From an uncultured Dehalococcoidales bacterium (GTDB taxonomy: Bacteria; Chloroflexota; Dehalococcoidia; GIF9; AB-539-J10): a stretch of DNA of 64,000 bases. The notes under the pieces were generated by a model that worked only from the letters and a program-made list of their open reading frames with translations, was not told the DNA's origin and made no database searches. This document shows, piece after piece, positions 1,144 to 61,619 of the stretch. A program made the translations under genes and the position numbers. The stretch lies in assembly GCA_964435965.1 (NCBI GenBank), contig CAYTBB010000001.1, forward strand, positions 6,715-70,714, given 5' to 3'. The number at the start of each line of letters is the position of its first letter. Position 1 is the first letter of the stretch.

Positions 1144-1217
1144 GTCCCTGTAGCTCAGCTGGATAGAGCGGCTGCCTTCTAAGCAGCGGGTCGTGGGTTC
1201 GAATCCCTCCAGGGACG
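1144..1217 (+). tRNA. tRNA-Arg (anticodon TCT)
   Basis: The sequence folds as a cloverleaf with acceptor GTCCCTG/CAGGGAC, a D-arm AGCTCAGCTGGATAGAGC and an anticodon loop CTTCTAA (anticodon TCT). The T-loop is TTCGAAT and no CCA is encoded. Confidence 0.85.
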
Positions 1218-7512: not shown

Positions 7513-7524
7513 GGTGAGGGTGAA
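7489..7524. repeat. family-2 repeat, reverse orientation (…GGGGAGAGGGCTAGGGTGAGGGTGAA)
   Basis: The reverse complement TTCACCCTCACCCTAGCCCTCTCCCC resembles the 5084 and 50071 copies. It lies immediately before the proS start, and the GGTGAGGGTGA segment doubles as a Shine-Dalgarno-like sequence. Confidence 0.4.
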
Positions 7525-7530
7525 ATAAAA

Positions 7531-11491: not shown

Positions 11492-13909
11492 TCAATCTCT
11501 TAAAGTAGCACCTAGTTCTTGATGTAATCTATCTACAATCCTCTGATGGGGTCTATTAACCTCTTCGTCGGTTAAAGTATGCTCAGGTGATTGATAAACA
11601 ATCCTTATAGCGAAGGATTTCTTGCCTTCAGGTATTTGCTCACCTCGATAAAAGTCAAAGAGCGTGACTTTCTTTACTAGCGGGAAGCTTCGGATTACAT
11701 CCTCCACCTGCTGATAGCTTACTTGCTTATCTATTACTAAGGCAATGTCTCTAGTTATGTTGGGAAACCGTGGGATAGGCTGATACTGCTTTACTTTGAT
11801 TGTTTTGCTCAGCAACTTCTCTATATCCATTTCAATAAGATAAACAGCATCAGAAAGCTCGAAGGCTTGTGCTACCTTGGGATGCAAGTTACCTACAATA
11901 CCCACTTTATCAGCGCCGATGATTATATTAGCTGCCCTTCCAGGTAATAGGCTTTCATCATCACTGGCCCCAAAGGTTGCTTCTAGTCCCAATTGGTTCA
12001 AAAGGTTCTCTACTACTCCCTTAGCATCAAAAAAATTGAGCTGCTCCTTATTACCGTGCCAGGACAATTCTGCCTCTGGGCCGCTAAGTGCAGCACAAAG
12101 CATTTCCTTTTCTTGTGGCAGCTCATTCCCTTGTGGCAAGAATATCTTGCCGATTTCAAATAATCTTATGCTCCCTTCCTCAACCCTTTGATTGTGTACC
12201 AAGGTAGTTAGCAAGCCAGGACGCAAAGTAGTACGCAAGTATTCCTGCTCCTTGGTCATAGGGTTAGCTACTTTCAAAGATGTAACTTTCAGCTTGAGCC
12301 TCGGAGAAATTTTTTGCAGCCTCTCTAAGCTAGTCAAAGAATAGGTCAGTATTTCTTGAAAACCGCAGCCGGTGAGAATATTTCCTAATCTTTGCTTGAG
12401 ATTGCTTCGCTGCACTCGCAATGACAACCTTGATTCCTGTTGAGGGAAGGGAGAGCTAAGCCTGGTAACAGGAACTTGGTCATAGCCGATAATGCGAACC
12501 ACCTCTTCTACAAGATCAGCAGAGCAGCTAATGTCGCTGCGCCAATAAGGAGCCACTACCAAGATTTGTGACGCTGAGTTGGCATGCTGACATTCAAAGC
12601 CCAAGGATTTTAATACTTTAAGAATCTTAGCTAATGGTACCTCTAAGCCTGAAAGTCGCTTCACCTCCTCAGCAGAGAGCAAGATGCCCTTTGGCTGTGA
12701 TTTCCCAGGATAAACATCTATTATGCTCTTAGCTGCCTTGCCGCCAGCCAGCTCCAAGAGCAATTGGGTAGCTCGCTTCAGTGGTAGCAGTGGTAAGTCA
12801 GGATTTAGCCCTTTATCGAAGCGAATAGAAGCCTCACTTTGCAAATTAAGGCAATGGCATCCTTGACGAATGATTGCTTGGTTGAAATTTGCTGACTCTA
12901 GGAGAATAGAAGTGGTTTTATCTGCAACCTCGGTATCCAATCCTCCCATAATTCCAGCAATAGCAACAGCCTTTTCTTTGTCAGCAATGACTAAAGTATC
13001 GGGGCTAAGAACACGCTCTATTCCATCAAGGGTGGTTATAGTTTCGCTATTTCTAGCCCGACGGACAATAATCTGTTTGCCTTCAAGTTCATGATAGTCA
13101 AAAGCATGGAGAGGCTGCCCATATTCCAGCATTACGTAATTGGTAACATCAACCACATTGTTAATAGGACGCATGCCATAGCTACTCAGGCGATACTGTA
13201 GCCAATTAGGAGAAGGGGCTATCTTAATCCCTATAATTAAGCTGGCACAGTACCTAGGACATAAACTTGGTTCAATTATGTCAACAGAGACAAAAGAATC
13301 TATCGGAGTCTCTGTTTCTTCATAATGAATCTCGGGCAAATGAAGTGCTTGCTCAGTAAGAGAGGCAATTTCTCTAGCAATGCCAATTATGGATAAGCAA
13401 TCTGGGCGATTGGGCGTTATATCTAAATCAAAAATAACATCGCCTAAATAGTCTCTAAGAGGCATACCTATAGGAGCTTCTGATGGTAATACCATGATGC
13501 CCCCGTGACTATCGGAGATCCCCAATTCCTTTTCAGAGCAAACCATGCCCTCAGAAAGAACGCCACGGATTTTAGCTGGCTTTAGCAAAATAGGTTTCCC
13601 AGTATGACCATCTATAAGTTGTGCTCCCACAGAGGCGAAAGGCACCTTCTGCCCGAGGCTAATGTTTGGGGCACCGCAAACCACAGTAACCTGCTGGGGG
13701 TCGAGATTAACAGTAGCTAGCCTTAGGCGATCTGCGTTGGGATGAGGATTTAAAGCCGTTACTTCTCCTACTACTACGTTGTTCCAGGTGCTGCCTGTAG
13801 TCTGTATGTCTTTGGCTTCCACGCCAGCCATAGTTAGCCTTCTAGCTAGCTCTTTAGGAGCAAGTTTGATGTCACTATAATCTTTAAGCCATTTAAGCGA
13901 AGCCTTCAT
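11492..13909 (-). CDS. pheT: phenylalanyl-tRNA synthetase beta subunit
   Basis: The protein is 805 aa and starts MKASLKWLKDYSDIKLAPKELARRLTMAGVE, with B3/4 and B5 domains and an FDX-ACB-like C-terminus. Confidence 0.93.
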   Translation of the reverse strand: MKASLKWLKDYSDIKLAPKELARRLTMAGVEAKDIQTTGSTWNNVVVGEVTALNPHPNADRLRLATVNLDPQQVTVVCGAPNISLGQKVPFASVGAQLIDGHTGKPILLKPAKIRGVLSEGMVCSEKELGISDSHGGIMVLPSEAPIGMPLRDYLGDVIFDLDITPNRPDCLSIIGIAREIASLTEQALHLPEIHYEETETPIDSFVSVDIIEPSLCPRYCASLIIGIKIAPSPNWLQYRLSSYGMRPINNVVDVTNYVMLEYGQPLHAFDYHELEGKQIIVRRARNSETITTLDGIERVLSPDTLVIADKEKAVAIAGIMGGLDTEVADKTTSILLESANFNQAIIRQGCHCLNLQSEASIRFDKGLNPDLPLLPLKRATQLLLELAGGKAAKSIIDVYPGKSQPKGILLSAEEVKRLSGLEVPLAKILKVLKSLGFECQHANSASQILVVAPYWRSDISCSADLVEEVVRIIGYDQVPVTRLSSPFPQQESRLSLRVQRSNLKQRLGNILTGCGFQEILTYSLTSLERLQKISPRLKLKVTSLKVANPMTKEQEYLRTTLRPGLLTTLVHNQRVEEGSIRLFEIGKIFLPQGNELPQEKEMLCAALSGPEAELSWHGNKEQLNFFDAKGVVENLLNQLGLEATFGASDDESLLPGRAANIIIGADKVGIVGNLHPKVAQAFELSDAVYLIEMDIEKLLSKTIKVKQYQPIPRFPNITRDIALVIDKQVSYQQVEDVIRSFPLVKKVTLFDFYRGEQIPEGKKSFAIRIVYQSPEHTLTDEEVNRPHQRIVDRLHQELGATLRD

Positions 13910-18414: not shown

Positions 18415-18487
18415 TGGGCGATACTGGATTTGAACCAGTGACCTCTGCGATGTCAACGCAGCGCTCTAACCGCTGAGCTAACCGCCC
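18415..18487 (-). tRNA. tRNA-Val (anticodon GAC)
   Basis: The reverse complement is GGGCGGTTAGCTCAGCGGTTAGAGCGCTGCGTTGACATCGCAGAGGTCACTGGTTCAAATCCAGTATCGCCCA, a complete cloverleaf with anticodon loop TTGACAT and no encoded CCA. Confidence 0.85.
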
Positions 18488-20698: not shown

Positions 20699-20706
20699 AG
20701 CAATAT

Positions 20707-20735
20707 GTCATTGCGAGTGAAGCGAAGCAATCCCC
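20707..20735. repeat. family-1 repeat head GTCATTGCGAGTGAAGCGAAGCAATCCCC (copy F) forming the 5' extension of the next ORF
   Basis: The motif GTCATTGCGAG...GCGAAGCAATC matches the copies at 25311, 41043 and 50834. Confidence 0.5.
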
Positions 20736-20776
20736 AGCTTGTAATAAAGCTTCCACCTCCTCAGCTAAAAGGTAAG

Positions 20777-21340
20777 ATGTCGCTGGAAGAAGCTATAGCT
20801 AGCCGTAGATCAGTTCGAAAATATCGCTCAGAACCATTAACACCTTCTCAGCTATCTCAGCTTCTCTGGTCAGCTCAGGGTATTACCGGGGCCGGGGGAC
20901 TTAGAGCAGCCCCCAGCGCTGGGGCTACATATCCTCTGGAAATTTTTGTTTTCATTGGCAAACAAGCCATAGAAGGGCTACAAGCTGGCATTTACCACTA
21001 TGATGTAGTTAGTCATTCACTGGTTTTACATCAACCGGGAGACTTGAGGAAAGAGCTAGCTAGGGCAGCTCTTGACGAGGGATTCATTGCCAATGCCCCG
21101 CTGGATATCGTTATCTGTGCCCTTTATCCCAGGACTTCCTACAGATATGGCCGGCGTGGAGAGAGATATGTTCACATGGAAATGGGACATGTCGGGGAAA
21201 ACATCCACCTTCAAGCTGTAGCTCTGGGCTTGGCCACAGTGGAAGTCGGTGCTTTTGATGACGAGGGGGTAAGAGAAGTCCTAGGAGTGGAAGAACAGAT
21301 TAAGCCTTTGTACATCATGCCCATTGGCAAGCCACTGTAA
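20777..21340 (+). CDS. nitroreductase-family protein (SagB-type dehydrogenase domain); possible extended start at 20705
   Basis: MSLEEAIASRRSVRKY is a typical nitroreductase N-terminus. The ORF-track start at 20705 would add 24 residues translated from the repeat element. Confidence 0.75.
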   Translation: MSLEEAIASRRSVRKYRSEPLTPSQLSQLLWSAQGITGAGGLRAAPSAGATYPLEIFVFIGKQAIEGLQAGIYHYDVVSHSLVLHQPGDLRKELARAALDEGFIANAPLDIVICALYPRTSYRYGRRGERYVHMEMGHVGENIHLQAVALGLATVEVGAFDDEGVREVLGVEEQIKPLYIMPIGKPL

Positions 21341-24783: not shown

Positions 24784-26091
24784 TTAACTCTTGAGCCCAG
24801 TTACAACCTCCTCTGGACTAGTAATTCTGCCTAGAATAGCGCTAGCGGCAGCTACTACAGGACTTGCCAAATAGACCTCGGACTGAGGGCTTCCCATTCT
24901 GCCAACAAAATTTCGGTTGGTGGTAGATAAACAGCGCTCACCAGCGGCTAAAACCCCCATGTGTCCACCAAGACAAGGCCCACAAGTAGGAGTGCTTACT
25001 ACAGCCCCAGCTTCTATAAAAGTTTCTATTAGCCCCTCTCTCAAAGCATCAAGATAAACCTTCTGCGAGCCTGGAATAATGATACATCTAATTTCTGGAT
25101 GTATTTGCCTTCCTTTGAGGAGTTTAGCCGCTACTCTCAAATCACCAAGGCGACCATTGGTGCAACCGCCGATAACCACCTGATCTAGTTTTATGTTACC
25201 CACCTGGCTTACAGGTTTAGTATTGGAGGGAAGATGAGGGAAAGCCACCTGAGGCTCAATTTTGGACACCTCATATTCTCTGATTTTGGCATATTCAGCA
25301 TCTTTACATTGAGATTGCTTCGTCGCTGACGCTCCTCGCAATGACGTAGGGGATGGCTCGCAATGACGGAGGGACACGTGCGCTTTAATATATTCCTCGG
25401 CCTTAGCATCTACACAAAAAATGCCAGCCTTAGCTCCAGCTTCGATGGCCATATTTGCCATAGTAAAGCGCCCATCCATTGATAGCTCATCAACTGCTTC
25501 ACCCCTAAACTCCATAACCGAGTAAAGCGCTCCATCTACACCAATATCTCCGATGGTGTAAAGAATAATATCCTTGCCACTAACCCATTTGGGCAGCTTC
25601 CCATGGTAAATAAACTTAATCGTTTGTGGCACCTTCATCCATATTTCGCCGGTAGCCATAGCCACAGCAATGTCAGTTGAACCCATGCCTGTGGCAAAAG
25701 CTCCCAGGGCACCATAAGTACAAGTATGGGAATCAGCGCCAACAATGACTTGCCCAGACAAGACCAAGCCTTGCTCAGGCAAGAGCACATGCTCAATCCC
25801 CATTCGCCCTACCTCAAAGTAAATCAGTCCCTGTTCCTTAGCGAACTCACGCATCAGCTTTGCTTGTCCAGCAGATGCTATATCTTTATTGGGGCAAAAA
25901 TGATCGGGAACCATGACTACCTTTGCAGGGTCAAACACCTTTGATATTCCAAGCCGTTGAAACTCTTTTATGGCTAAGGGGGCAGTTATATCATTGGCTA
26001 AAACTAAATCAACTCTGACATTTATAAACTCGCCAGGCTTAACTTCCTTCTTGCCACTATGAGCTGCTAAGATCTTCTCAGCTAAAGTCAA
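24784..26091 (-). CDS. leuC: 3-isopropylmalate dehydratase large subunit (archaeal type) carrying an in-frame repeat-derived insertion
   Basis: The 435-aa protein has an aconitase-family catalytic domain with Cys ligands (GGCTNG, TCGPCLG). The segment [25 protein letters not shown] is translated from repeat copy G. Confidence 0.9.
25311..25368. repeat. family-1 repeat (copy G): two tandem GTCATTGCGAG heads plus a GCGACGAAGCAATCTC tail, inside leuC
   Basis: The plus strand reads GAGATTGCTTCGTCGCTGACGCTCCTCGCAATGACGTAGGGGATGGCTCGCAATGACGG, which matches copy H almost base for base. Confidence 0.6.
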
Positions 26092-34189: not shown

Positions 34190-34340
34190 TTACTTGTAGG
34201 CCCTGAGCCTTTCGCTTCCTGTCATTCTGAATTCTTCACTCCTTGTCATTCTGAGGGAGGGAAGCGACCGAAGAATCTCATTGCGCTCAGGACAGGCTCA
34301 GCGAAAAATCTAGAGCCCCTTCACTTCATTCAGGGTGACA
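34190..34340. repeat. family-1 dispersed repeat, long form (copy A) with two TGTCATTCTGA heads and a CAGGGTGACA terminal inverted repeat
   Basis: The copy reads ...CTTGTAGGCCCTGAGCC...TGTCATTCTGAATTCTTCACTCCTTGTCATTCTGAGGGAGGGAAGCGACCGAAGAATCTCATTGCGCTCAGGACAGGCTCAGCGAAAAATCTAGAGCCCCTTCACTTCATTCAGGGTGACA. It is homologous to copies B, C, D and E. Confidence 0.65.
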
Positions 34341-36093: not shown

Positions 36094-36168
36094 TTCACTT
36101 TAGTGTCATTCTGAGAGAGCGTGGCGACCGAAGAATCTTAGAGACACTTCGCTTCGCTCAGGGTGACA
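36094..36168. repeat. family-1 repeat, short form (copy B)
   Basis: The copy reads TTCACTTTAGTGTCATTCTGAGAGAGCGTGGCGACCGAAGAATCTTAGAGACACTTCGCTTCGCTCAGGGTGACA. Its TIRs are TGTCATTCTGAG and CTCAGGGTGACA. Confidence 0.65.
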
Positions 36169-40758: not shown

Positions 40759-41727
40759 TTGGGAATGTCTGTTTTATTACAAACTGACTTACCTCTTCCC
40801 TTATTCCGTCGCGGCAAGGTAAGAGATGTCTATGACTTAGATGACAAACTTCTTATAGTGGCTACTGACCGCATCTCTGCTTTTGATTTTGTCCTGCCTT
40901 GTGGCGTCCCCAACAAAGGGAAGGTTCTTAATCAACTCTCAGCCTTTTGGTTTGAGAAAACAGCCCATATTGTGCCCAATCATCTCATCAAGGTAATTGA
41001 TAGCTTGGATGCGTTTGAGGATGTCATCGCGAGGGCTGAAAGCCCGAAGCAATCTCAAGAGAAGAAAGATTCCTCGCTTACGCTCGGAACAAGCCTTATT
41101 GGCCGCTCCATGCTTGTGGCTAAAGCTGAGCGTATTCCTGTAGAATGTGTTGTTCGAGGTTACTTATCTGGCTCAGCTTGGGCAGAGTATAAGAAAAGTG
41201 GTACTGCTGGCGATATTCGCTTACCAGCCGGGATGAAGGAAAGTCAAGAATTGTCTCACCCTATCTTTACTCCTACTACCAAAGGAGAGGCAGAGCATGA
41301 CCGTCCTTTAACTAATCAAGATATAAGGAACCTTGAGGAAATATCATTGCAGGCGGGGCGAAGCAAGCTCAATTTGATTAAGGAATTGGAGGAGAAAAGC
41401 TTGCTCATTTACCGCTACGCACGAGATTATGCTAAAAACAAGGGCATCATGATTGCCGACACCAAGTTTGAGTTCGGCTTTGTCAATGGTGAACTAACGC
41501 TTATTGACGAGCTATTAACGCCGGACTCGAGTCGCTTTTGGGATGCTAGCCAATACGAAGTTGGTCATTCACAACCCAGCTTTGACAAACAACCAGTTCG
41601 TGATTGGCTTTCAGCCTCAGGATGGAACAAAGAGCCACCGGCGCCTATGTTGCCATTGGAGGTAATTGAGGCTACCACACAACGGTATAACAGAATCTAT
41701 CAGTTGTTTACTGGAAAACGTGTCTAG
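40759..41727 (+). CDS. purC: SAICAR synthetase (long, eukaryote-like form) carrying an in-frame repeat-derived insertion
   Basis: The 322-aa protein contains GKVRDVYD...VATDRISAFD...ADTKFEFG...LTPDSSRFW. The segment DVIARAESPKQSQEKK is encoded by a family-1 repeat. Confidence 0.9.
   Translation: MGMSVLLQTDLPLPLFRRGKVRDVYDLDDKLLIVATDRISAFDFVLPCGVPNKGKVLNQLSAFWFEKTAHIVPNHLIKVIDSLDAFEDVIARAESPKQSQEKKDSSLTLGTSLIGRSMLVAKAERIPVECVVRGYLSGSAWAEYKKSGTAGDIRLPAGMKESQELSHPIFTPTTKGEAEHDRPLTNQDIRNLEEISLQAGRSKLNLIKELEEKSLLIYRYARDYAKNKGIMIADTKFEFGFVNGELTLIDELLTPDSSRFWDASQYEVGHSQPSFDKQPVRDWLSASGWNKEPPAPMLPLEVIEATTQRYNRIYQLFTGKRV
41043..41076. repeat. family-1 repeat copy inside purC (GTCATCGCGAGGGCTGAAAGCCCGAAGCAATCTC)
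   Basis: The head GTCAT(T/C)GCGAGG and tail CGAAGCAATCTC match copies G and H. Confidence 0.55.
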
Positions 41728-46074: not shown

Positions 46075-46875
46075 ATGAAACATCTCCTCTCTTACTGGAA
46101 TGTTGTTGCTGTCAGGATCAGGGAAGCAACGCACATACTACTGCTGATTGATTATGATGGTACCTTAACCCCCATCGTAGAAAGGCCCGAATTAGCCCAC
46201 TTATCACCAGAGATGAAAGAGTGCCTGCAAGGTCTGGCTAACAATCCCCGCCTGACTTTAGGAATTATAAGTGGCAGAACCATAGGGGATCTGCAACAAA
46301 GAGTAGGTATCAAGGACATTGTCTATGCTGCGAACCATGGTTTGGAGATAGAAGGACCAAGTATTAGTTTTGTTAATACGGCCGCTAAGCAGGCAATCCC
46401 TTTGCTACGTTCTTTATGTCAAGATATTAGTAAAGCTATAGCGGGCATTAAAGGAGCTAGAATAGATAATAAAGAGCTAACATTAAGCCTGCACTATCGA
46501 CTGGTAGATGAATCACAGCTAGATGAATTGAACAAGATTTTCACTGAAATCGTTAAACCTTCTCTTGCTTCAGGTCAGATAAGAATCACTCCAAGCAAAA
46601 AGGCATACGATATAAGGCCAGCAGCAGATTGGGATAAAGGTAAAGCAATAGAGTTCATCGCTCAAAAACTTACTGGTGAGGATAAACCGTTGATGCTATT
46701 CCTTGGCGATGATGTAACCGATTACGATGGCTTTCGCACGGTAGATATGAATGGCGGGATTTCCATTTTCGTAGGCGAAGAGACTACTAAGCCTCCAGCC
46801 CGGTATTTCCTGTATTCACCGAAAGAAGTATATCAATTCCTTGGGATGCTAGGAGAGGTCTTTAGCTCTCAATGA
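46075..46875 (+). CDS. otsB: trehalose-6-phosphate phosphatase-like HAD-IIB hydrolase
   Basis: The 266-aa protein has LLLIDYDGTLTPIV (DxDGT motif) and GDDVTD. Confidence 0.8.
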   Translation: MKHLLSYWNVVAVRIREATHILLLIDYDGTLTPIVERPELAHLSPEMKECLQGLANNPRLTLGIISGRTIGDLQQRVGIKDIVYAANHGLEIEGPSISFVNTAAKQAIPLLRSLCQDISKAIAGIKGARIDNKELTLSLHYRLVDESQLDELNKIFTEIVKPSLASGQIRITPSKKAYDIRPAADWDKGKAIEFIAQKLTGEDKPLMLFLGDDVTDYDGFRTVDMNGGISIFVGEETTKPPARYFLYSPKEVYQFLGMLGEVFSSQ

Positions 46876-47452
46876 CCTCCTTCGTACTAGGCACTCTGCC
46901 CAGAATTCGCTCATCAATGCGGGTGGCTGAATCCAGGGCTCGGCCTAAGGCTTTAAATAAAGCTTCAGCCTTGTGATGGTCGTTGACGCCAGTGAGCACT
47001 TTGGCATGAAGGTTAATTTTGGCTTCGGAAGCGAAGGAAACTAAAAAATGGCGGACTAAATCAGCTTCCAAATCACCTATGCTAGCTTCGCTGAAGGATG
47101 CTTCTATCACACTGTAGGCTCTTCCCCCTATATCCACTGCTACTGCTGCCAGAGCTTCATCCATGGGCACGGTAGCATGTGCCATTCGGGTAATGCCTCG
47201 CTTTTCTCCTATTGCTTGATTCAAGGCTTTACCCAGAGCAATAGCTACATCCTCGACTACATGGTGCTGGTCGGCACTTGTGCCTGAGAGTTTTATGTCA
47301 AATACTCCATGCTGAGCTAGTTGAGTGAGAAGATGGTCAAACATCCTTACGCCCGTAGTTATCTCGAATTGCCCGCTGCCATCAATATTCAGCTCCACCC
47401 TGACGTTTGTTTCTGCAGTTTCACGAGTTACTACTGCTTTCCTTTCAGCCAT
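46862..47452 (-). CDS. hisB: imidazoleglycerol-phosphate dehydratase
   Basis: The 196-aa protein reads RKAVVTRETAETNVRVELNIDGSG...HH..E. Confidence 0.93.
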   Translation of the reverse strand: MAERKAVVTRETAETNVRVELNIDGSGQFEITTGVRMFDHLLTQLAQHGVFDIKLSGTSADQHHVVEDVAIALGKALNQAIGEKRGITRMAHATVPMDEALAAVAVDIGGRAYSVIEASFSEASIGDLEADLVRHFLVSFASEAKINLHAKVLTGVNDHHKAEALFKALGRALDSATRIDERILGRVPSTKEVIES

Positions 47453-47455
47453 TTT

Positions 47456-48649
47456 TTAAACTCCTTTTGATTTTATTTCCTTTAATGCCCCAATTAAGGC
47501 ATCGGTGTCCTCAGGTTTACCCACGCTTATTCGCAGGTAATTTCTTAATCGTGGGCTATCAAAATAGCGGATAAAGATGCCTCTTTTTTGCAGCAAACGC
47601 CAAATCTCTTTAGCCGGAGATTCTTCGCCGAGCTTGCCCTGAGTGAGATTCCTCGGTCGCTGTCCCTTCGCTTTGCCCAGGGCTTCGGCTAACCCCACGG
47701 AATGACAGTGTAAGGAGCAGAGGATAAAATTAGCACTGGAAGGATAGGGTTTTAGCCATTCTAGCTCTTTTAATTTGCCAAATAATCGCTCCCGCTCAGC
47801 AACTATTTTTGCTACATTGCCACGAAGATACTCTATATCTGACAAAGAAGCTAAGGCGGCTGCCTGTGCTGCGACATTAACATTATATGGTTGCTTAATC
47901 TTCATAAGGTAGCTGGCGATTTCAGTAGGGAAGATGCCATAGCCTATTCGTAAACCGGCTAGCCCAGCCCATTTGCTGAATGTACGCAGCACTATCAAGT
48001 TGGAGTAGTTGGGCACTAAATTAGCCACAGTGACGTTGCTAAACTCAAAGTAAGCTTCATCCACCATCACAATTTTCCCGGTGTTGACAAGTTCCATTAT
48101 CTCCTGCCCAGTAATAATGTTGCCCGCAGGATTATTAGGTGAAGCAACAGAGATGACCTTGGTCTTTTTATCCAATACGCTCTTAATGCCAGCTAAATCG
48201 ATAGCAAAATCTCCATCTCTAGGTACATCAACTACCTTGCCACCGCATACCTCAGTACTAAAGGGATACATACCAAATGTTGGTGGACAATTGACAACCT
48301 TGTCACCAGGTTTAAGGAAAAGCCTCAGAACAAGATCAATTATTTCATCACTGCCGCTGCCGCAAACAATGTGCTCACGATTTAAGCCGGTATATTTCTC
48401 TAAGGCTTGTCTAAGCCTTCTTTGTTCCGGGTCGGGGTAGATATAATAGTAAGGGTAGTTAGCTAAAGCTTGATAGACTCTGGGGGAGCACCCGTAAGGG
48501 TTCTCATTGCCATCGAGTTTAATTATCCTTTCTACAGATAATTCAGCCCGCTGGCTCAAAATATCCATTGGCTCAATAGGGGTATAGCTTTTCATAGTTA
48601 TCAATTCAGGCCTGATTAGTTCTTTCATAGCCATCTCAACTAAAACCAA
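47456..48649 (-). CDS. hisC: histidinol-phosphate aminotransferase
   Basis: The protein is 397 aa, class II aminotransferase, with SFSKWAGLAGLRIGY. Confidence 0.9.
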   Translation of the reverse strand: MVLVEMAMKELIRPELITMKSYTPIEPMDILSQRAELSVERIIKLDGNENPYGCSPRVYQALANYPYYYIYPDPEQRRLRQALEKYTGLNREHIVCGSGSDEIIDLVLRLFLKPGDKVVNCPPTFGMYPFSTEVCGGKVVDVPRDGDFAIDLAGIKSVLDKKTKVISVASPNNPAGNIITGQEIMELVNTGKIVMVDEAYFEFSNVTVANLVPNYSNLIVLRTFSKWAGLAGLRIGYGIFPTEIASYLMKIKQPYNVNVAAQAAALASLSDIEYLRGNVAKIVAERERLFGKLKELEWLKPYPSSANFILCSLHCHSVGLAEALGKAKGQRPRNLTQGKLGEESPAKEIWRLLQKRGIFIRYFDSPRLRNYLRISVGKPEDTDALIGALKEIKSKGV

Positions 48650-48737: not shown

Positions 48738-50060
48738 TTATTTGGCTCTCATCCTTTTTTCTATCGCTTGAGCGTGCGCATCCAGCCCTTCAGCTTTAGC
48801 CATTACCATGGCTGCTTGGCTTAGTTCTCTCATAGCCGCCTTGTCTAAGGCGATGACATTGGTAACCTTTAGAAAGTCCTCAACACCTAAAGGGGAGCTA
48901 AAGCGAGCACTGCCTTGGGTAGGCAATACATGTGATGGACCAGCAATATAATCCCCTAAAACCACTGGTGAATCTTCTCCAATAAAAATACAGCCCGCAT
49001 TATGAATCTTGGGCATTATGGAGGAGGCATCAGATACCATGAGAGAAAGATGCTCTGGAGCATAAAGGTTGACCAGTTCGATAGCCTCATCAAAGTTATT
49101 GACCAATATAATCATTCCTCTATCAATAGCCTGGGTAGTGATAGAGCGGCGTTTCAGCTTCCCTAATTGCGCTACCACCTCTCTATCAACTTGATTAGCC
49201 AGACCAGATGAAGTAGTAATCAAAATCGTCTGCGCTAAAGGGTCATGCTCAGCTTGAGCTAGAAGGTCAGCGGCGCAAAGTGAAGGGTTAGCTGTCTCAT
49301 CAGCCACAATCACTATCTCGCTTGGTCCTTGAAGTCCATCAATAGCTACGTTGCCATAGACCATCTTCTTAGCCAAGGTCACAAAGATATTGCCAGGGCC
49401 ACAGATTTTGTCCACTTTGGGTATTGACTCAGTCCCGAAAGCTAAGGCAGCGATAGCTTGAGCCCCGCCAACTTTGAAAATACGATCGACCTTTGCAAGA
49501 TCAGCAGCTACTAGAGTAGGTGACGGGATGCTGCCATTTTTACCAGGTGGCGAAGCCACGATAATCTCCCTGACCCCAGCTATCTTAGCTGGCATGGCTG
49601 TCATTAGCACCGTAGATGGATAGGTAGCAGTACCACCGGGAATATATAAACCCACTCTATCTAGCGGCTGGACTTGCCTGGCTAAATATTGATTAACAAA
49701 TATAGTGCCACTCTTACAGGCACAAGCAAGATGGAAATCTCGTATTCTCTTAGCTGCTAATTCGAGTGCTGAGACAAGTTCCTTGCCTACCATATCGTAA
49801 GCTGCTGAAATTTCTTGCTTGCCTACCCCTAAGGAATCAAGTTCGACAGCATCTAACTTTTTAGCGTAATGGAAAAGAGCTTCATCGCCTTTATCACGAA
49901 CGTCGCCAATGATACGTTCCACTACTTCTTTGGGGGAAAGCTCTTCTCCAAAGACGTGCTTTATTTGTGTTGCCACTTGTGGCGAGACAATGAAAGATTC
50001 CAGGAAAGTTTTTCTGGTCAGCAATTGTCTTGCCTTATTAAATCCTTTGACTCTTATCAT
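48738..50060 (-). CDS. hisD: histidinol dehydrogenase
   Basis: The protein is 440 aa with HisD family motifs (QAEHDPLAQ, GDYIAGPSHVLPT). Confidence 0.93.
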   Translation of the reverse strand: MIRVKGFNKARQLLTRKTFLESFIVSPQVATQIKHVFGEELSPKEVVERIIGDVRDKGDEALFHYAKKLDAVELDSLGVGKQEISAAYDMVGKELVSALELAAKRIRDFHLACACKSGTIFVNQYLARQVQPLDRVGLYIPGGTATYPSTVLMTAMPAKIAGVREIIVASPPGKNGSIPSPTLVAADLAKVDRIFKVGGAQAIAALAFGTESIPKVDKICGPGNIFVTLAKKMVYGNVAIDGLQGPSEIVIVADETANPSLCAADLLAQAEHDPLAQTILITTSSGLANQVDREVVAQLGKLKRRSITTQAIDRGMIILVNNFDEAIELVNLYAPEHLSLMVSDASSIMPKIHNAGCIFIGEDSPVVLGDYIAGPSHVLPTQGSARFSSPLGVEDFLKVTNVIALDKAAMRELSQAAMVMAKAEGLDAHAQAIEKRMRAK

Positions 50061-50070
50061 GATAATCTTT

Positions 50071-50107
50071 TCACCCTCACCTTAATCCTCCCCCGTCAAG
50101 GGAGAGG
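50071..50107. repeat. family-2 palindromic repeat TCACCCTCACCTTAATCCTCCCCCGTCAAGGGAGAGG
   Basis: This is a near-identical copy of 5084-5120. It lies in the hisG-hisD intergenic spacer and is followed (50114-50127) by a family-1 head fragment GGCTCGCAATGACA. Confidence 0.5.
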
Positions 50108-50141
50108 AGAATTGGCTCGCAATGACAAAAGGGAGAGTTAA

Positions 50142-51569
50142 TCATGAGAGCCCTCTGCGTAATGTTTGAATAAGAAATTCAATCTTCTCCTTTTTACCAG
50201 GGAAGTCAAGGCTGCCTTTGTTTCCGATTAGACAAGCAGTGGATTTGAAAAGCACATCGATAACTTTTAAGTCATGTTGCGCCAGTGTTTTCCCAGTTTG
50301 GGTATTGTCAATGAGCAAATCGGCATCCTCGGGCAGGAAAACTTCACTCGCTCCCCAAGTTGGGATTACCTTGCACGGGTTGATATAGTTATCTCGAAGA
50401 TACTTATCAGCGATGTTTACGTATTCTGAAGCTACTCTTAATAGAGTAAGTTTACCACTTTGAATAAGCGATCTTAAGTCAGCAACGTCGGTTATAGGCA
50501 TATCTTGACTCACTGCAGCCACAATTTTAACCATACCAAAGCCCAGATCAAGCAACTCCTTCACTGGGCTTGAGGGGAAACGATAGAGGTGTTCCAGCAA
50601 CCAATCCTTACCGGTTATGGCTAAATCAAAATTGCCATTAGCCACTTGAAGAGGCATATCCTGAGGTCTGATTACCTTAATGCCAAGCCAATCTAAATCG
50701 GAGGAGGGGCGACGGTTCAATACTTCCTCTGTATACCCCTGAATGTTAAGCCCACTTCGCTTCAAAAACTGCGCCGTAGGTGGTTGCTGATGTCCATCAG
50801 GCAAAGCTAGCTTTATTTCCTTCGCTTGCCAATGAGATTGCTTCGTCGCTTCACTCCTCGCAATGACCGTACTAGGGCTTGTAACAACATTATTTCGGCT
50901 TGCAATAACATTGCTGAAACAATTCAATATCTGGCTCAGATCTTTATTCTCCAAGCTTTCTCGGTTAGCGATTAGAAAGGCTGTGACCGGGAGTAACTTT
51001 ATTAGGGGAACCAAACTTTGCTCCTTTATCTCATTTTCATTCCTTGCCCACAGTATTGCCAGATCAGCACTATCTGGGGGATAAATTTCAGCAGCTCCCC
51101 ACACCGGGAAAATCTTAAAGGCCTTCATCCTGAGATTTAAGGCAAAAACTTGAGCTAAATTAGGGTACTCGCTTACTATGCGCCAGTTATCCCGCTTGGC
51201 TAACAATCCGTCAAGATTGGATATCCCTGCTTGGTAGCTGGCCACCGCATATACACCACCCTCACCGTAATTTAGACTTGATATTTTTACTAAGGCGCTC
51301 GCTGGATACCTCGCCAAAAGTTCCTCAACCCAATCCAAGCCACATATTCCCAGGTCATAATTGCCTATGGCTACTTGCATGGGAATATCTTTCTCCTGAA
51401 ATACCTTGGCCGAAAGCCAAGAGAACCTTCTCGATTGAAGGCGATATCGCCTCGTCTTATTGCTGTAGCCTTTAATGCCCACCCCTGCCCCTTTAAGCAA
51501 GTTAGCCGTAGTCAGTAAGAACCTACCTTTAGGCAAGGCGAGTTTGATATGGCACGGTTGGTATTCCAC
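50142..51569 (-). CDS. hisG: tandem double-domain ATP phosphoribosyltransferase (two short-form HisG domains fused through a repeat-derived linker)
   Basis: The N-half reads IKLALPKGRFL...KDIPMQVAIGNYDLGICGLDW...DSADLAILWAR. The C-half reads IKLALPDGHQQ...QDMPLQVANGNFDLAITGKDW...DADLLIDNTQTGKTLAQHDLKV. The PRPP-loop TGxT motif is kept only in the C-half. Confidence 0.85.
   Translation of the reverse strand: MEYQPCHIKLALPKGRFLLTTANLLKGAGVGIKGYSNKTRRYRLQSRRFSWLSAKVFQEKDIPMQVAIGNYDLGICGLDWVEELLARYPASALVKISSLNYGEGGVYAVASYQAGISNLDGLLAKRDNWRIVSEYPNLAQVFALNLRMKAFKIFPVWGAAEIYPPDSADLAILWARNENEIKEQSLVPLIKLLPVTAFLIANRESLENKDLSQILNCFSNVIASRNNVVTSPSTVIARSEATKQSHWQAKEIKLALPDGHQQPPTAQFLKRSGLNIQGYTEEVLNRRPSSDLDWLGIKVIRPQDMPLQVANGNFDLAITGKDWLLEHLYRFPSSPVKELLDLGFGMVKIVAAVSQDMPITDVADLRSLIQSGKLTLLRVASEYVNIADKYLRDNYINPCKVIPTWGASEVFLPEDADLLIDNTQTGKTLAQHDLKVIDVLFKSTACLIGNKGSLDFPGKKEKIEFLIQTLRRGLS
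50834..50868. repeat. family-1 repeat (copy H) forming the inter-domain linker of hisG
   Basis: The plus strand reads GAGATTGCTTCGTCGCTTCACTCCTCGCAATGACC. On the coding (minus) strand it is followed by two degenerate head-like units, aatgttattgcaagc and aataatgttgttacaagc. Confidence 0.6.
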
Positions 51570-51577
51570 AGATGATT

Positions 51578-52816
51578 TTACCTGCCTAATATATTAAGAA
51601 TCTCCGCCACGGAGGCTACATCTCTCCGCTGCTTCTGCTGACGATCTATGAGCACAAACGGAGACGGCTTCTTAGTAACTGAGATAACCCAGCGATAGTT
51701 AGATGGCTCTCGTTCAGTGAAGGCGATTCCCACCGTGCATTTCGCCTCACGAAGCGATTGAGCTAGAGTGAAGCATGTTCTCACTATCTCCGGGGTTGAC
51801 TCCTCACCCTTAATTAAAATTCTAGATTCGGTGCCCTCTTCGCTTTCCAATGGAAGCAATTTCATTATCGGGTCAATATAAAGGGCAAAGCCGCAAGCAG
51901 GAATGCTTTTCCCGCTCATAAAGGGAATAAGGTCATCATACCTTCCTCCCCCACCTATTTTCTCCCTATCAGCTAATAACTGGAAGCAAATTCCGGTGTA
52001 GTACTCGAAACCGCGTATTGCCGTGATATCAATTTCATAATTACAGTTCAGGCTGTCTAGCAATGTGGTGATGTTTATGAAATCCTCCATACTAGACTTG
52101 AAATCCGATGAAGCTTGCTGGCACAAAGCTTTTGTATTCTGCAAGAAACCACTTGACTTTCCCTTTAGGCTTAGAAGCAAAGGTAGAAGTCTATCCAGTT
52201 CAGGTCTAGTTGATTTTCCCTCCATTAATGCTTGCCAATCTCCATCTAAAACACGGCTTGTTACTTTAGCCTCTTCGCCCGGGCCAAGCTTAAGTTCTTT
52301 AATCACTGCCTTCACCAAGCCAGCATGAGATAATTGTAATCTAATGTTAGCCAAGCCAAGTTTATGTACAACCTCTTTAACCAACGAAATTATCTCGGCA
52401 TCCGCTGCCAATTTAGTACCGCCTAAAAACTCAGCGCCACACTGCCACCTCTCCCTGTTCTCCCGGCCTGTTTCTTCAAAGGCAAAGATATTAGTCATAT
52501 AGAAAAGTTTAGCTATCTCGTGTTCACTTAGATTGTTAATATAAAGTCGGGCTACGGGAATAGTGCCGTCTGGTCGCAAGACCACTCTCTCACCGCTCCA
52601 GCCATTCCAATCAAGAAAGGAGTATACTTTGCCTAGCATACTTGGAGTAAGCGTTCCCGCAGCCGTAAATAGATGGAGGTATTCTAAGGTCGGTGTTCTT
52701 ACCTCTTGATACCCATACTTACCACAGCAATTTCGAAACGCATCTTCGATATGCCGAAAGCGCACCATATCCTCAGGAAGCAAGTCCCGCATTCCTTTAC
52801 ATTTTTTGCTTTCCAT
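51578..52816 (-). CDS. hisZ: ATP phosphoribosyltransferase regulatory subunit (HisRS-like)
   Basis: The protein is 412 aa and HisRS-like (GMRDLLPEDMVRFRHIED, YYTGICFQ) but lacks an anticodon-binding domain. It lies directly upstream of hisG. Confidence 0.85.
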   Translation of the reverse strand: MESKKCKGMRDLLPEDMVRFRHIEDAFRNCCGKYGYQEVRTPTLEYLHLFTAAGTLTPSMLGKVYSFLDWNGWSGERVVLRPDGTIPVARLYINNLSEHEIAKLFYMTNIFAFEETGRENRERWQCGAEFLGGTKLAADAEIISLVKEVVHKLGLANIRLQLSHAGLVKAVIKELKLGPGEEAKVTSRVLDGDWQALMEGKSTRPELDRLLPLLLSLKGKSSGFLQNTKALCQQASSDFKSSMEDFINITTLLDSLNCNYEIDITAIRGFEYYTGICFQLLADREKIGGGGRYDDLIPFMSGKSIPACGFALYIDPIMKLLPLESEEGTESRILIKGEESTPEIVRTCFTLAQSLREAKCTVGIAFTEREPSNYRWVISVTKKPSPFVLIDRQQKQRRDVASVAEILNILGR

Positions 52817-52896: not shown

Positions 52897-52948
52897 CCTA
52901 CCTGTCATTCTGAGCGTAGCGAAGAATCTCATACCGCTCAGGGTGACA
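52897..52948. repeat. family-1 repeat, minimal short form (copy C)
   Basis: The copy reads CCTACCTGTCATTCTGAGCGTAGCGAAGAATCTCATACCGCTCAGGGTGACA. Its TIRs TGTCATTCTGAGCG and CGCTCAGGGTGACA are perfect apart from the central TT/GG. Confidence 0.65.
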
Positions 52949-53018: not shown

Positions 53019-54332
53019 ATGAATAGAACTTTGCTCAGGATTTTCCTTCTTGCCTTGTTTATAATCACAATAGTTGGGGCTTTGGGAGGCAGCATAATTA
53101 GCGCTTCCAGTCCAACGATTGAAATCCTTCATGTGGAAGGCACTATTGTGCCAGTGGTGGCTGATTACATTGATCGAGGTATTAGCCAGGCTGAAGATGA
53201 GAATGCTACTGTTTGCATTATTGAATTAAATACGCCAGGAGGGCTTCTCACCGCAACGGAGAAAATAGTCCAGAGAATTATGAATGCCGATGTGCCTGTA
53301 GTAGTTTACGTTTCCCCTAAAGGTGCCTGGGCTGCTTCAGCGGGAACTTTCATTACTTTATCTGCTCATATAGCCGCTATGACATCGGGCACCACTATTG
53401 GTGCTGCCCATCCTGTAGCTGCCGGGGGAGAGGAAATACCGGAAGCCCAAATGGAGAAGATAGTCGAATTTTCGGCTAAATGGATGAGGACCATTGCCGA
53501 GGAGCGGGGTCGCAATATGGAAGAAGCTGAGCTAGCCGTGACAGAAAGTAAATCCTTTACTGATGTTGATGCCCTGGAATCTAACCTTATTGATATGAGA
53601 GCTGATAATTTAGAAAGCCTTATTTCCCAAATCAATGGCTGGAGAGTTACTTTAGCCAATGGCGAGGAAGTTACTATTAACACTACGGGCTACGAGACAA
53701 TTAGAAATGAAATGAATGCCATTGAGCAGTTCTTGCAAGCCATAAGTGACCCAAATATTGCCTACATCCTGCTTACTCTGGCTACCATAGGGCTAATCAC
53801 TGAGATTTCCAACCCAGGGATGGTTATTCCCGGGGTAGCCGGTGGCATAAGCTTATTCCTGGCGTTTTACTCCTTGGGAGTACTTAATGCTTACTGGGGG
53901 GGTATAGCGCTTATTCTGCTTGCCGTTGGACTTTTCGTCGCCGAGTATTTCACCGCTAGCTTTGGTCTATTTACCGCTGGAGGTATAATCTCGCTGGTTG
54001 TTGGCTCCCTAATCTTATTCAGCTATAGTCCAGGAATAGAAGTAAATCGTGGGCTAATTGCCGGCGTCACAGCTGCCATTGCCGCCTTTGGTATCTTTGT
54101 CATTGGTGCTATCATTAGAGGACAGAGACGCCGCAAAGCTACTGGCCCTGAGGGAATGGTGGGGAGGCTAGCTATAGCCAAAACGCCTCTAGACCCCACA
54201 GGCACAGTTCTAGCTGAAGGCGAACTTTGGACAGCCATAGCTGAAGGGGGTAAAATAGAACCACATGAGAAGGTGGTCATAACCAAAGTAGAAGAACTGA
54301 AATTGTGGGTGGCAAAAAAATCTAAAGAATAG
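53019..54332 (+). CDS. NfeD-family membrane-bound serine protease (ClpP-like domain, TM region, C-terminal OB-fold domain)
   Basis: The protein is 437 aa with a signal/TM segment, the ClpP-class block GGLLTATEKIVQRI...SAGTFITLSAHIAAM, 4-5 TM helices and a C-terminal NfeD beta-domain. Confidence 0.85.
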   Translation: MNRTLLRIFLLALFIITIVGALGGSIISASSPTIEILHVEGTIVPVVADYIDRGISQAEDENATVCIIELNTPGGLLTATEKIVQRIMNADVPVVVYVSPKGAWAASAGTFITLSAHIAAMTSGTTIGAAHPVAAGGEEIPEAQMEKIVEFSAKWMRTIAEERGRNMEEAELAVTESKSFTDVDALESNLIDMRADNLESLISQINGWRVTLANGEEVTINTTGYETIRNEMNAIEQFLQAISDPNIAYILLTLATIGLITEISNPGMVIPGVAGGISLFLAFYSLGVLNAYWGGIALILLAVGLFVAEYFTASFGLFTAGGIISLVVGSLILFSYSPGIEVNRGLIAGVTAAIAAFGIFVIGAIIRGQRRRKATGPEGMVGRLAIAKTPLDPTGTVLAEGELWTAIAEGGKIEPHEKVVITKVEELKLWVAKKSKE

Positions 54333-54341
54333 GAGGGTAGT

Positions 54342-54752
54342 TTGCTATTCATGGAATCGCCCTTTGTCGAATCATTACCTGAAGAGTTAGAAGCACTATT
54401 TAAGGCGTTATCTAAAGCGTTATTTAAAGTATCAGAAGCACTATCTATGGGAATAACAGGGCCTATTATTGTAGTCATAATTTTTGCCGCCGCCTTTGTT
54501 ATCTTCGTCATTTTTGCTATCGTTAAAGGTCAAAGGCGGAAACTCACCGCTGGTGTAGAGAATATGGTGGGAAAAGTGGCTGTAACGCAAACAGAGCTCA
54601 ATCCTACAGGCACAGTTCTGGCTGAAGGCGAGCTTTGGACAGCCATAGCTGAGGGGAGTAAAATAAAACCTGATGAGGAGGTGGTCATAACTAAAGTAGC
54701 AGGCTTGAAATTGTGGGTAACAAAAAAATCTAAAGAAAAGGAGGACAAATAA
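54342..54752 (+). CDS. short NfeD-like protein (TM + OB-fold), recent partial duplicate of the preceding gene's C-terminus
   Basis: The C-terminal ~55 residues (PTGTVLAEGELWTAIAEGSKIKPDEEVVITKVAGLKLWVTKKSKE) are nearly identical to the C-terminus of 53019..54332. The nucleotide sequences of the two regions are ~90 % identical. Confidence 0.7.
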   Translation: MLFMESPFVESLPEELEALFKALSKALFKVSEALSMGITGPIIVVIIFAAAFVIFVIFAIVKGQRRKLTAGVENMVGKVAVTQTELNPTGTVLAEGELWTAIAEGSKIKPDEEVVITKVAGLKLWVTKKSKEKEDK

Positions 54753-61495: not shown

Positions 61496-61619
61496 GCTTC
61501 CTGGCAACGGCCTATTTTCCCAAAGGGTTGCCCCTCAAGTATCGTCTGCGCTGGAGCGTTTCACTTCCGTATTCGGGATGGGAACGGGTGGTTCCACTCC
61601 GCTCTAGTCACCAAGAAGC
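61496..61619 (-). rRNA. rrf: 5S ribosomal RNA (orphan; no 23S/16S in window)
   Basis: The reverse complement reads GCTTCTTGGTGACTAGAGCGGAGTGGAACCACCCGTTCCCATCCCGAATACGGAAGTGAAACGCTCCAGCGCAGACGATACTTGAGGGGCAACCC...GCCGTTGCCAGGAAGC. It contains the universal 5S core CCCATCCCGAA.ACGGAAGTGAAACGC, and its 5' and 3' ends pair to form helix I. Confidence 0.85.

Follow-up and report, generated by a model that had tools for sequence, protein, structure and literature searches.

Tandem hisG gene and its operon

The 64,000-nucleotide (nt) stretch of contig CAYTBB010000001.1 analyzed in this study (the window), from an uncultured Dehalococcoidales bacterium, carries on its minus strand a his operon in the order hisZ-like gene, tandem hisG, hisD, hisC and hisB. 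HisG, the ATP phosphoribosyltransferase (ATP-PRT), is the first enzyme of histidine synthesis, and the hisG open reading frame (ORF) of this operon encodes two HisG domains in one chain of 475 amino acids (aa). The operon genes and the parts of the tandem ORF were assigned as follows.

51578-52816, minus strand: hisZ-like gene, a paralogue of histidyl-tRNA synthetase (HisRS), 412 aa, Pfam tRNA-synt_His at aa 8-317
50142-51569, minus strand: tandem double-domain hisG ORF, 475 aa, GTG start, TGA stop
50922-51548, minus strand: N half, HisG fold, putatively non-catalytic (N-type), aa 8-216, from the Pfam and TIGR00070 stretches
50817-50921, minus strand: inter-domain linker, aa 217-251, predicted to be disordered, free in sequence and constrained in length
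50833-50867, minus strand: intact copy of a short repeat, GTCATTGCGAGGAGTGAAGCGACGAAGCAATCTCA, translated VIARSEATKQS, inside the linker
50145-50816, minus strand: C half, putatively catalytic (C-type) HisG, aa 252-475, best Pfam stretch aa 301-471
48738-50060, minus strand: hisD, histidinol dehydrogenase, the downstream operon gene, from Pfam Histidinol_dh (E 1e-158) and synteny
47456-48649, minus strand: hisC, continuing the his operon after hisD
46862-47452, minus strand: hisB, continuing the his operon after hisC

The stop codon of the hisZ-like gene precedes the start of the tandem hisG by 8 nt, which agrees with the placement of hisG next to hisZ in an earlier, sequence-only reading of this DNA, and a gene for a HisRS-paralogue regulatory subunit (51578-52816) is encoded together with hisG. 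A Pfam scan found no anticodon-binding domain in the hisZ-like protein, of which about 95 C-terminal residues had no Pfam match. The gene product is apparently a HisZ of divergent sequence, varying in concert with the tandem HisG. Genes for IGPD and an aminotransferase occupy the equivalent places in two related loci, L081 and L082.

Independent assemblies contained a protein identical to that of the window (P0001) and others at 95-96% identity in which the repeat is likewise in frame (L001-L003), and therefore neither the tandem ORF nor its repeat is an assembly artefact. Two protein clusters that are 100% identical and 412 aa long, P0007 (present in NCBI, JGI and ENA) and P0008, begin at Met64. 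This start drops the conserved IKLALPKGR of the N half, which lies in the first 63 codons (window 51381-51569), and the GTG at 51569 is the start fitting all homologues.

The two HisG domains carry different motif sets

Two stretches of the 475-aa protein were matched by the Pfam profile HisG (PF01634; 206 bits) and likewise by TIGR00070 of NCBIfam (237 bits against a cut-off of 75.75), both above threshold, supporting the earlier claim of two complete short-form HisG domains, for which a two-copy check by Pfam profile had been proposed. PF01634 was the only family reported at E <= 0.01, that is, the HisG_C regulatory domain was not found at this threshold, and the chain ends about 20 aa past the core. 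Aligned with each other, the N half (aa 7-212) and the C half (aa 251-455) shared 35% identity over about 205 residues (E 1e-38, 120 bits), while the canonical HisG proteins of the PDB scored no higher than 55 bits with the C half and 34 bits with the N half. In a phmmer search of the PDB, the N half alone matched short-form HisG (HisGS) with E 2e-7; the C half matched PDB HisG with E values down to 5e-14. Based on the higher score between the halves than to canonical HisG, the duplication is specific to this HisGS lineage.

Both halves open with IKLALP(K/D)G, and KDIPMQVAIGNYDLGICGLDW of one half matches QDMPLQVANGNFDLAITGKDW of the other, just as the sequence-only reading had quoted them. 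To follow the conservation of these and other motifs, 81 sequences were aligned, comprising the window and the best 80 species-level matches; some positions were scored in 80. These 80 relatives were the best among at least 588 confirmed matching stretches from a scan of one genome per GTDB species. Residues were mapped to the HisGS of P. arcticus (PaHisGS) from PDB alignments. The following sites, including the loop that binds phosphoribosyl pyrophosphate (PRPP), distinguish the halves.

50286-50321, minus strand: PRPP-binding loop DLLIDNTQTGKT, C half only; D417, T425, G426 and T428 invariant in 81 of 81
51030-51065, minus strand: degenerate PRPP-loop position of the N half, DLAILWARNENE, from the half-to-half alignment
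51522-51530, minus strand: K14-G15-R16 of the N half, equivalent to the KGR motif with Arg32 of PaHisGS, from alignment
50790-50798, minus strand: D258-G259-H260 of the C half, in place of the canonical KGR, in 81 of 81 sequences
50652-50669, minus strand: RPQDMP of the C half, R301 being the PaHisGS Arg73 equivalent, R301 in 81 of 81

In PaHisGS, Arg32 of the KGR motif and Arg56 are catalytically important, and Arg56 extends over the dimer interface as far as the PRPP pyrophosphate in the partner subunit (PMC9734150), while Arg73 is salt-bridged to the ATP gamma-phosphate (PMC10795190). Compared with these residues, the C half of the tandem protein contained the PRPP-loop consensus D/E-x-x-x-(S/T)-G-x-T, with D or E at position 421, together with R301, an invariant D304, and R286/R287 in the Arg56 region (R287 in 75 of 81 sequences). 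The N half did not contain the loop consensus (L173…NENE), and its D/E, T, G and T were lost in every homologue of the set, which upholds the earlier assignment of the PRPP loop to the C half only; Q58 stands at its Arg73-equivalent position. Conversely, the equivalent of the catalytic Arg32 was missing from the C half, and KGR was found only in the N half without the PRPP loop, where K14 and G15 were present in 80 of 80 sequences and position 16 was R in 73 and K in 5. DGH, which replaces it in the C half, was also found in the split C-type genes of Desulfobacterales described below. Arg32 of HisGS is understood to act in cis.

The N half further retained D61 (of DIP), E134-Y135-P136-N137 and G158-A-A-E161 (the GSxE equivalent), as well as R/K40 in 79 and R43 in 76 of the 81 sequences, with R40 being the arginine at the position of the trans-acting Arg56. 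An early mapping, in which PaHisGS Arg56 was taken as the arginine of R-x-x-D-V/I-P and the two halves fitted a neat model of complementary loss, was dropped because the papers and the PDB alignments place Arg56-Lys57 in the 'SRK' loop and identify the RxxDVP arginine as Arg73.

For the ratio of nonsynonymous to synonymous substitution rates (dN/dS), the N half gave 0.09-0.35 and the C half 0.07-0.21, with far higher values in the linker; both halves, at roughly 0.1-0.2, are under purifying selection. Since the PRPP loop and the Arg73 equivalent are present in the C half and both are gone from the N half, we infer that the C half is the only plausible catalytic half. The N half could be a conserved partner that donates R40 in trans.

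Predicted structure of the tandem protein

A structure of the whole 475-aa chain was predicted with AlphaFold2 (AF2) from a 27-sequence alignment, yielding a mean predicted local distance difference test score (pLDDT) of 86.5 and a predicted TM-score (pTM) of 0.83. Only residues 1-4 and 224-245 were disordered, with pLDDT below 50 for the latter. Foldseek searches of the PDB with this model returned HisG structures only, each match covering about one half of the query, and the target-normalised TM-scores against HisGS chains were 0.8-0.91. A pTM of 0.83 for a two-lobed protein implies that the halves of the model hold a fixed arrangement, which fits an intramolecular HisGS-like dimer. The pseudo-dimer suggested in the sequence-only reading is thus in line with the model, which is confident over both halves and disordered at the linker.

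Distribution and age of the fused form

The best 80 relatives were all Dehalococcoidia or metagenome-assembled genomes of Chloroflexota, with 54-96% identity over nearly the full length, and one of them was labelled Dehalococcoides mccartyi. In all 80 the reading frame was continuous through the linker, and the gene was also fused in L081 and L082; the sole stop codon in any match, at codon 21 of L050, lies near the N terminus. Comparison with relatives, which the sequence-only reading had suggested for deciding between one gene and two, gave one continuous tandem gene in each of these relatives, the split form being found in Desulfobacterales. Consistently, a protein search gave more than 120 clusters of about 475 aa with 67-100% identity, of which the named ones were ATP phosphoribosyltransferases of Dehalococcoidia, and phmmer, run on the full database with only the N half as query, extended the fused homologues (451-485 aa) down to 33% identity, the named ones again being Dehalococcoidia or Chloroflexota.

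Gene order was conserved as well. The order hisZ, N half, C half was found in 83 of 85 loci, and the other 2 were cut at a contig end; hisD followed in 78 of the 85, the remainder being contig-end cuts or Desulfobacterales without a nearby hisD. By these distributions, the tandem HisG is an ancient and conserved architecture that occurs in hundreds of Dehalococcoidia species. No tandem, fused or paralogous HisG was described in the searchable literature, in agreement with the earlier impression that the architecture is undescribed; this is weak evidence, as most subscription journals lie outside that literature.

A split N-type/C-type pair in Desulfobacterales

Complete N-type proteins without a PRPP loop, about 213-235 aa long, were further results of the N-half phmmer search, and a search with one such standalone N-type protein returned more than 100 clusters of about 220-226 aa. 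Named clusters belonged to Desulfococcaceae, Desulfobacterales, Ca. Magnetomorum/Magnetoglobus and Tectomicrobia. At the split loci L083:3704-6432, L084:3773-6446 and L085:1864-4537, hisZ was followed by an N-type and then a C-type hisG, the gene context having been read in two genomes. The N-type genes encode 221-225 aa and the C-type genes 255-259 aa, and they join at TGAATG or by a 14-nt overlap. The split C-type proteins contained ALPDGH, IRPQDMP and IIENTETGNT. Between the last N-type helix and ALPDGH, the split form has about 15-20 aa vs. about 35 aa in the fused form.

The split pair, represented by L083 (Desulfococcaceae HSG9), L084/L085 and the Ca. Magnetomorum/Magnetoglobus proteins, therefore shares with the window two specialized paralogues encoded after hisZ: an N-type with KG(E/R) and no PRPP loop, and a C-type with ALPDGH, IRPQDMP and the PRPP loop. 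Unlike the window, the paralogues are separate genes with no 35-aa tether, are about 40-45% identical to the respective halves and have no hisD after them. In the nearest single-domain relatives, KGR, the R-x-x-D arginine and the PRPP loop occur together. Because separate N-type and C-type genes exist, the specialized pair would be older than, or independent of, the covalent link. One high-GC protein of 637 aa (P0179) resembles HisZ fused to an N-type HisG, with a tail rich in Arg and Pro that seems to be out of frame; this could be a genuine fusion of HisZ and HisG or could result from misassembly or a frameshift.

The linker is constrained in length and variable in sequence

Between window positions 216 and 252, the linker was 35 aa long in 53 of the 81 sequences and 32-38 aa in 73, and its mean pairwise identity was 19%, whereas the N half reached 60% and the C half 70%. 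The majority had 35-aa linkers with no recognizable repeat, including a large clade of 66-69% identity, and among the 80 relatives the intact linker repeat was confined to the clade closest to the window (L001-L003). Given that all 80 relatives are fused and most of their linkers lack the repeat, the fusion is much older than this repeat copy, which is a passenger in a linker whose sequence is unconstrained.

Linkers of several types were distinguished. Positional homologues of the window type (type A) were progressively decayed in P0012/L082, L008 and L024. In type B, another repeat copy is read in another frame (L004, L019, P0003/L081, P0005 and P0009), the copy of L004 also lying at a different offset. 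L011 represents a third type, C. The linker of L007 was enlarged to an 85-aa stretch that includes an in-frame copy of a second repeat family, and the linkers of deep fused homologues were Pro/Ala-rich with no trace of a repeat.

Outside the linker, the relative L081 (3001-4431), from a metagenome, differed from the window gene at 34 positions of about 1318 (97.4% DNA identity), while about 86 nt of its linker could not be aligned with window positions of about 50828-50913 and contained a decayed repeat in another frame. The proportion of synonymous differences (pS) between the two was 0.06-0.09 in the halves vs. 0.75 in the linker. A frameshift, by which P0003/L081 would translate identical linker DNA in a different frame, was rejected, as the DNA itself was unalignable over these 86 nt. 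Given the near-identical flanks, the unalignable linker and the contrast in pS, the linker behaves as a swappable cassette, and the comparison points to recombinational linker swapping between close strains.

A short repeat inserted in frame in several genes

The repeat in the linker belongs to a family, GTCATTGCGAG…GAAGCAATCTCA (also written GTCATTGCGAG…GAAGCAATCTC or GTCATTGCGAG…GAAGCAATC), that is spread over the whole window. Its 11-mer head occurred 8 times with at most 1 mismatch, vs. 0.71 times expected, and none of 100 shuffled sequences reached 8. The copies and related units other than the intact linker copy are listed below.

50897-50909, minus strand: degenerate head-only unit GTTATTGCAAGCC, 9/11 match to the head, inside the linker
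50116-50126, minus strand: head-only unit in the hisG-hisD spacer, from the head scan
12394-12426: repeat in the pheT ORF (11492-13909, minus strand), in frame, between the B5 and CLM domains
25302-25367: repeat in an aconitase-family large subunit ORF (24784-26091, minus strand), in frame, inside the Aconitase domain
41023-41057: repeat in the purC ORF (40759-41727, plus strand), in frame, inside the SAICAR_synt domain
20706-20738: repeat in a nitroreductase ORF (20705-21340, plus strand), in frame, in the first 12 codons

Head and tail of the linker copy were identical to those of the copies at 12394-12426 and 25302-25345. The sequence-only reading had derived the linker from one repeat copy plus two degenerate head-like units. 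Its full copy was verified at 50833-50867; GTTATTGCAAGCC is a plausible degenerate unit, having the 'head + GCC' form of the head-only units at 50116-50126 and 25357-25367; and the other, GTTGTTACAAG at 50878-50888 on the minus strand, matched the head at 7 of 11 positions, which by our own estimate is chance level. Folding of the repeat was no more stable than that of shuffled sequences (z -0.71 to +1.0) and no Rfam family was found at the repeat region, so a hairpin or a fold like that of a miniature inverted-repeat transposable element was rejected.

The housekeeping genes with repeat copies had Pfam matches on both sides of the repeat, which was read in more than one frame, one of the translated forms being MSLRVKRSNPQL. 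In an alignment of purC orthologues (P0419-P0538), the repeat-derived segment VIARAESPKQSQ was present in most Dehalococcoidia orthologues (77-97% identity) and absent in P0439, P0453 and P0530. A second copy was nested in the first in P0431, and an extra head-only unit (VIASxPT) was found in P0428, P0432, P0438 and P0444. In view of the in-frame copies in purC, pheT and the aconitase gene, the hisG linker copy is read as one more tolerated in-frame insertion.

Rickettsia palindromic elements (RPEs) are selfish repeats found in frame inside protein-coding genes (Ogata et al. 2000, as covered in the review PMC10969869). Similar to RPEs, the window repeat is multi-copy, lies in frame at loops or linkers of unrelated housekeeping genes, is read in more than one frame and is present or absent among orthologues. 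It differs from RPEs, which are about 100-150 bp, in its unit of about 35 nt and in showing no clear palindrome, and its host is a free-living Chloroflexota lineage rather than Rickettsia. By this analogy, it is possible that a repeat family of about 35 nt colonizes housekeeping genes of Dehalococcoidia in frame in an RPE-like manner, which would be a second, independent novelty of the window.

Two further short repeats were observed. The second family mentioned above, TGTCATTCTGAG…CGAAGAATCTC…GCTCAGG, is related to the first and occupies intergenic spacers at 34244-34278, 36104-36138 and 52904-52942, with one spacer copy just upstream of hisZ. A third repeat, TTCACCCTCACCTTAWTCCTCYCCCKTCAAGGGAGAGG, was found at 5081-5120 and 50068-50107 and inverted at 7500-7525; its copy in the hisG-hisD spacer adjoins the head-only unit there.

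Other features of the window

At the gathering threshold, the Rfam matches in the window were only a 5S rRNA (61499-61615, minus strand) and tRNAs at 18415-18487 (minus strand) and 1144-1217 (plus strand). A 181-nt direct repeat with 82% identity (54156-54336 and 54564-54744) coincides with the C-terminal portions of the neighboring NfeD-like ORFs 53019-54332 and 54342-54752, which look like tandem paralogues upstream of an SPFH/band-7-like gene.

Discussion

The tandem protein is most likely a single-chain, pseudo-heterodimeric HisGS that works with HisZ, an interpretation drawn from the sequence comparisons and the structural model. In full, we consider it probable that the gene encodes a single-chain asymmetric dimer of the short-form ATP-PRT, which arose by an ancient HisGS duplication, has a catalytic C half and a partner N half, acts with HisZ and carries the repeat as a secondary feature. 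After the duplication both copies would have specialized. The C-type copy would have retained the PRPP loop and R301, replaced KGR with the invariant DGH and become the catalytic half, and the N-type copy would have lost the PRPP loop and the ATP-binding arginine and kept the fold, KGR and R40. The two halves would pair with each other as HisGS subunits do in the canonical dimer, with the N half supplying the partner surface and possibly trans-acting residues to a single active site per pseudo-dimer. In Dehalococcoidia the pair would be held in one polypeptide by a disordered tether of about 35 aa, of which the length presumably matters and the sequence does not; in Desulfobacterales it would be formed from two separate abutting genes, placed after hisZ as in the first lineage. 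In P. arcticus, HisGS and HisZ form a hetero-octamer, in which a HisZ tetramer is sandwiched by two HisGS dimers (PMC9734150), and the working enzyme of Dehalococcoidia would probably be a HisZ core with tandem HisG units and half the usual number of active sites. The linker repeat would be a later in-frame insertion or replacement in a tolerant segment, with no part in the fusion.

Several observations weigh against this interpretation. The motif pattern is not cleanly complementary between the halves: the presumed catalytic C half has H260 instead of the Arg32 equivalent, the 'dead' N half keeps that arginine under selection, and R286/R287 of the C half, in the Arg56 region, would face the dead site. 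Ligand binding by the N half may thus persist, or the halves may be arranged in another way than the subunits of the canonical dimer. In addition, the putative intramolecular HisGS-like dimer is read from pTM, the hisZ-like protein scored below both NCBIfam cut-offs (hisS, 230.7 vs. 286.75; hisZ, 206.7 vs. 271.65), and the relatives inspected were the best 80 of at least 588 genome matches. The weakest points are how the two halves pack as an intramolecular dimer and what DGH and KGR contribute to catalysis.

Two accounts give the repeat, or an insertion, a role in the fusion. In the account of the sequence-only reading, taken here as a recent event in this lineage, a mobile repeat inserted between two neighboring hisG paralogues and fused them by removing the stop and start that kept them apart. 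A full repeat copy does lie in the junction, the family does insert in frame into genes, and a two-gene form with abutting stop and start exists in another phylum; however, all 80 relatives are fused with or without a linker repeat, fused forms extend to 33% identity, the repeat-bearing linker has the same 35 aa as repeat-free ones, and the roughly 97%-identical L081 has another linker cassette and is still fused. A recent origin of this kind is very improbable, and the claim that this repeat made the fusion is rejected. Also unlikely is an older event, in which an insertion, possibly a repeat, joined N-type and C-type genes that abutted in the ancestor of Dehalococcoidia, with all linkers descending from the insert. 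About 35 aa in the fused form vs. about 15-20 aa in the split form means that sequence was added at the junction, linkers have been repeatedly overwritten by repeats, and the type C linker of L011 faintly resembles the second repeat family, a resemblance by our own reading that is not significant. Yet the deep fused homologues have Pro/Ala-rich linkers free of repeat traces, the direction of the event, fusion or fission, is not established, and the linkers are so saturated that their ancestry is unreadable.

The remaining alternatives concern the N half. It might be a regulatory domain that binds a nucleotide, PPi or histidine in a remnant cleft and exerts control alongside HisZ. This would account for the retained KGR, D61, E134-Y135-P136-N137 and G158-A-A-E161, for the strong purifying selection and for the otherwise unexplained reciprocal motif loss, with KGR in the dead half and DGH in the live one, and R286/R287 of the partner would reach into the N-half cleft. 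We regard it as unlikely, as the loop for the PRPP 5-phosphate and the arginine for the ATP gamma-phosphate are gone, and HisZ, the known histidine sensor, is retained and syntenic. A relic N half, with no function of its own and retained along with an active C half, would agree with the loss of the PRPP loop and of the Arg73 equivalent, but hardly with a dN/dS of 0.09-0.35 and dozens of invariant residues over a deep divergence, with the more than 100 protein clusters of Desulfobacterales and allies in which it is an intact gene by itself, or with the confident AF2 prediction over this half; we give this alternative almost no credence.

Compared with HisGS/HisZ (P. arcticus 5M8H, A. baumannii 8OY0, T. 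maritima 1USY and L. lactis 1Z7M), the single-chain pseudo-heterodimer favored here has the same HisGS fold without a regulatory domain, a hisZ-like gene immediately upstream, a C half with the PRPP loop and the Arg73 equivalent, and an arginine in the Arg56 region of both halves. Unlike the HisGS homodimer, two different HisG domains stand in one chain or are encoded by two paralogous genes, one half is without the substrate-binding motifs, the catalytic half has DGH for KGR/Arg32, and the active sites per complex would be halved. The long-form HisGL is enlarged at its C terminus by a regulatory domain of about 80 aa that binds histidine (HisG_C), and HisZ is not needed. With HisGL (E. coli 1H3D, M. 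tuberculosis 1NH7 and C. jejuni 4YB5), the tandem HisG has in common the core fold (target-normalised TM-score of about 0.65) and a single polypeptide longer than HisGS; in contrast, it is enlarged by another complete HisG core, placed N-terminally, there is no HisG_C match, and HisZ is retained. At about even probability, the tandem HisG and the split pair would represent a third class of ATP-PRT beside HisGL and HisGS/HisZ: an obligate dimer of a DGH-type subunit and a KGR-type subunit lacking the PRPP loop, with HisZ and one active site per dimer, in which KGR and Arg40 of the dead half act in trans.

Flux through histidine synthesis is controlled at the ATP-PRT step, and the enzyme serves as a model system for allosteric activation, here exerted by HisZ. 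In the canonical homodimer, catalysis by Arg56 across the interface makes cis and trans roles hard to separate, and a natural asymmetric dimer, available in both fused and split forms, would make the dissection of cis and trans roles, half-of-sites behavior and HisZ signalling directly testable. For annotation, hundreds of Dehalococcoidia genes are named only 'ATP phosphoribosyltransferase', some of them called with a truncated N half, and the N-type proteins that stand alone in Desulfobacterales probably lack enzyme activity. Finally, a disordered tether that has been overwritten by repeats and apparently swapped between near-identical strains without harm would offer a natural experiment on the constraints acting on linkers.

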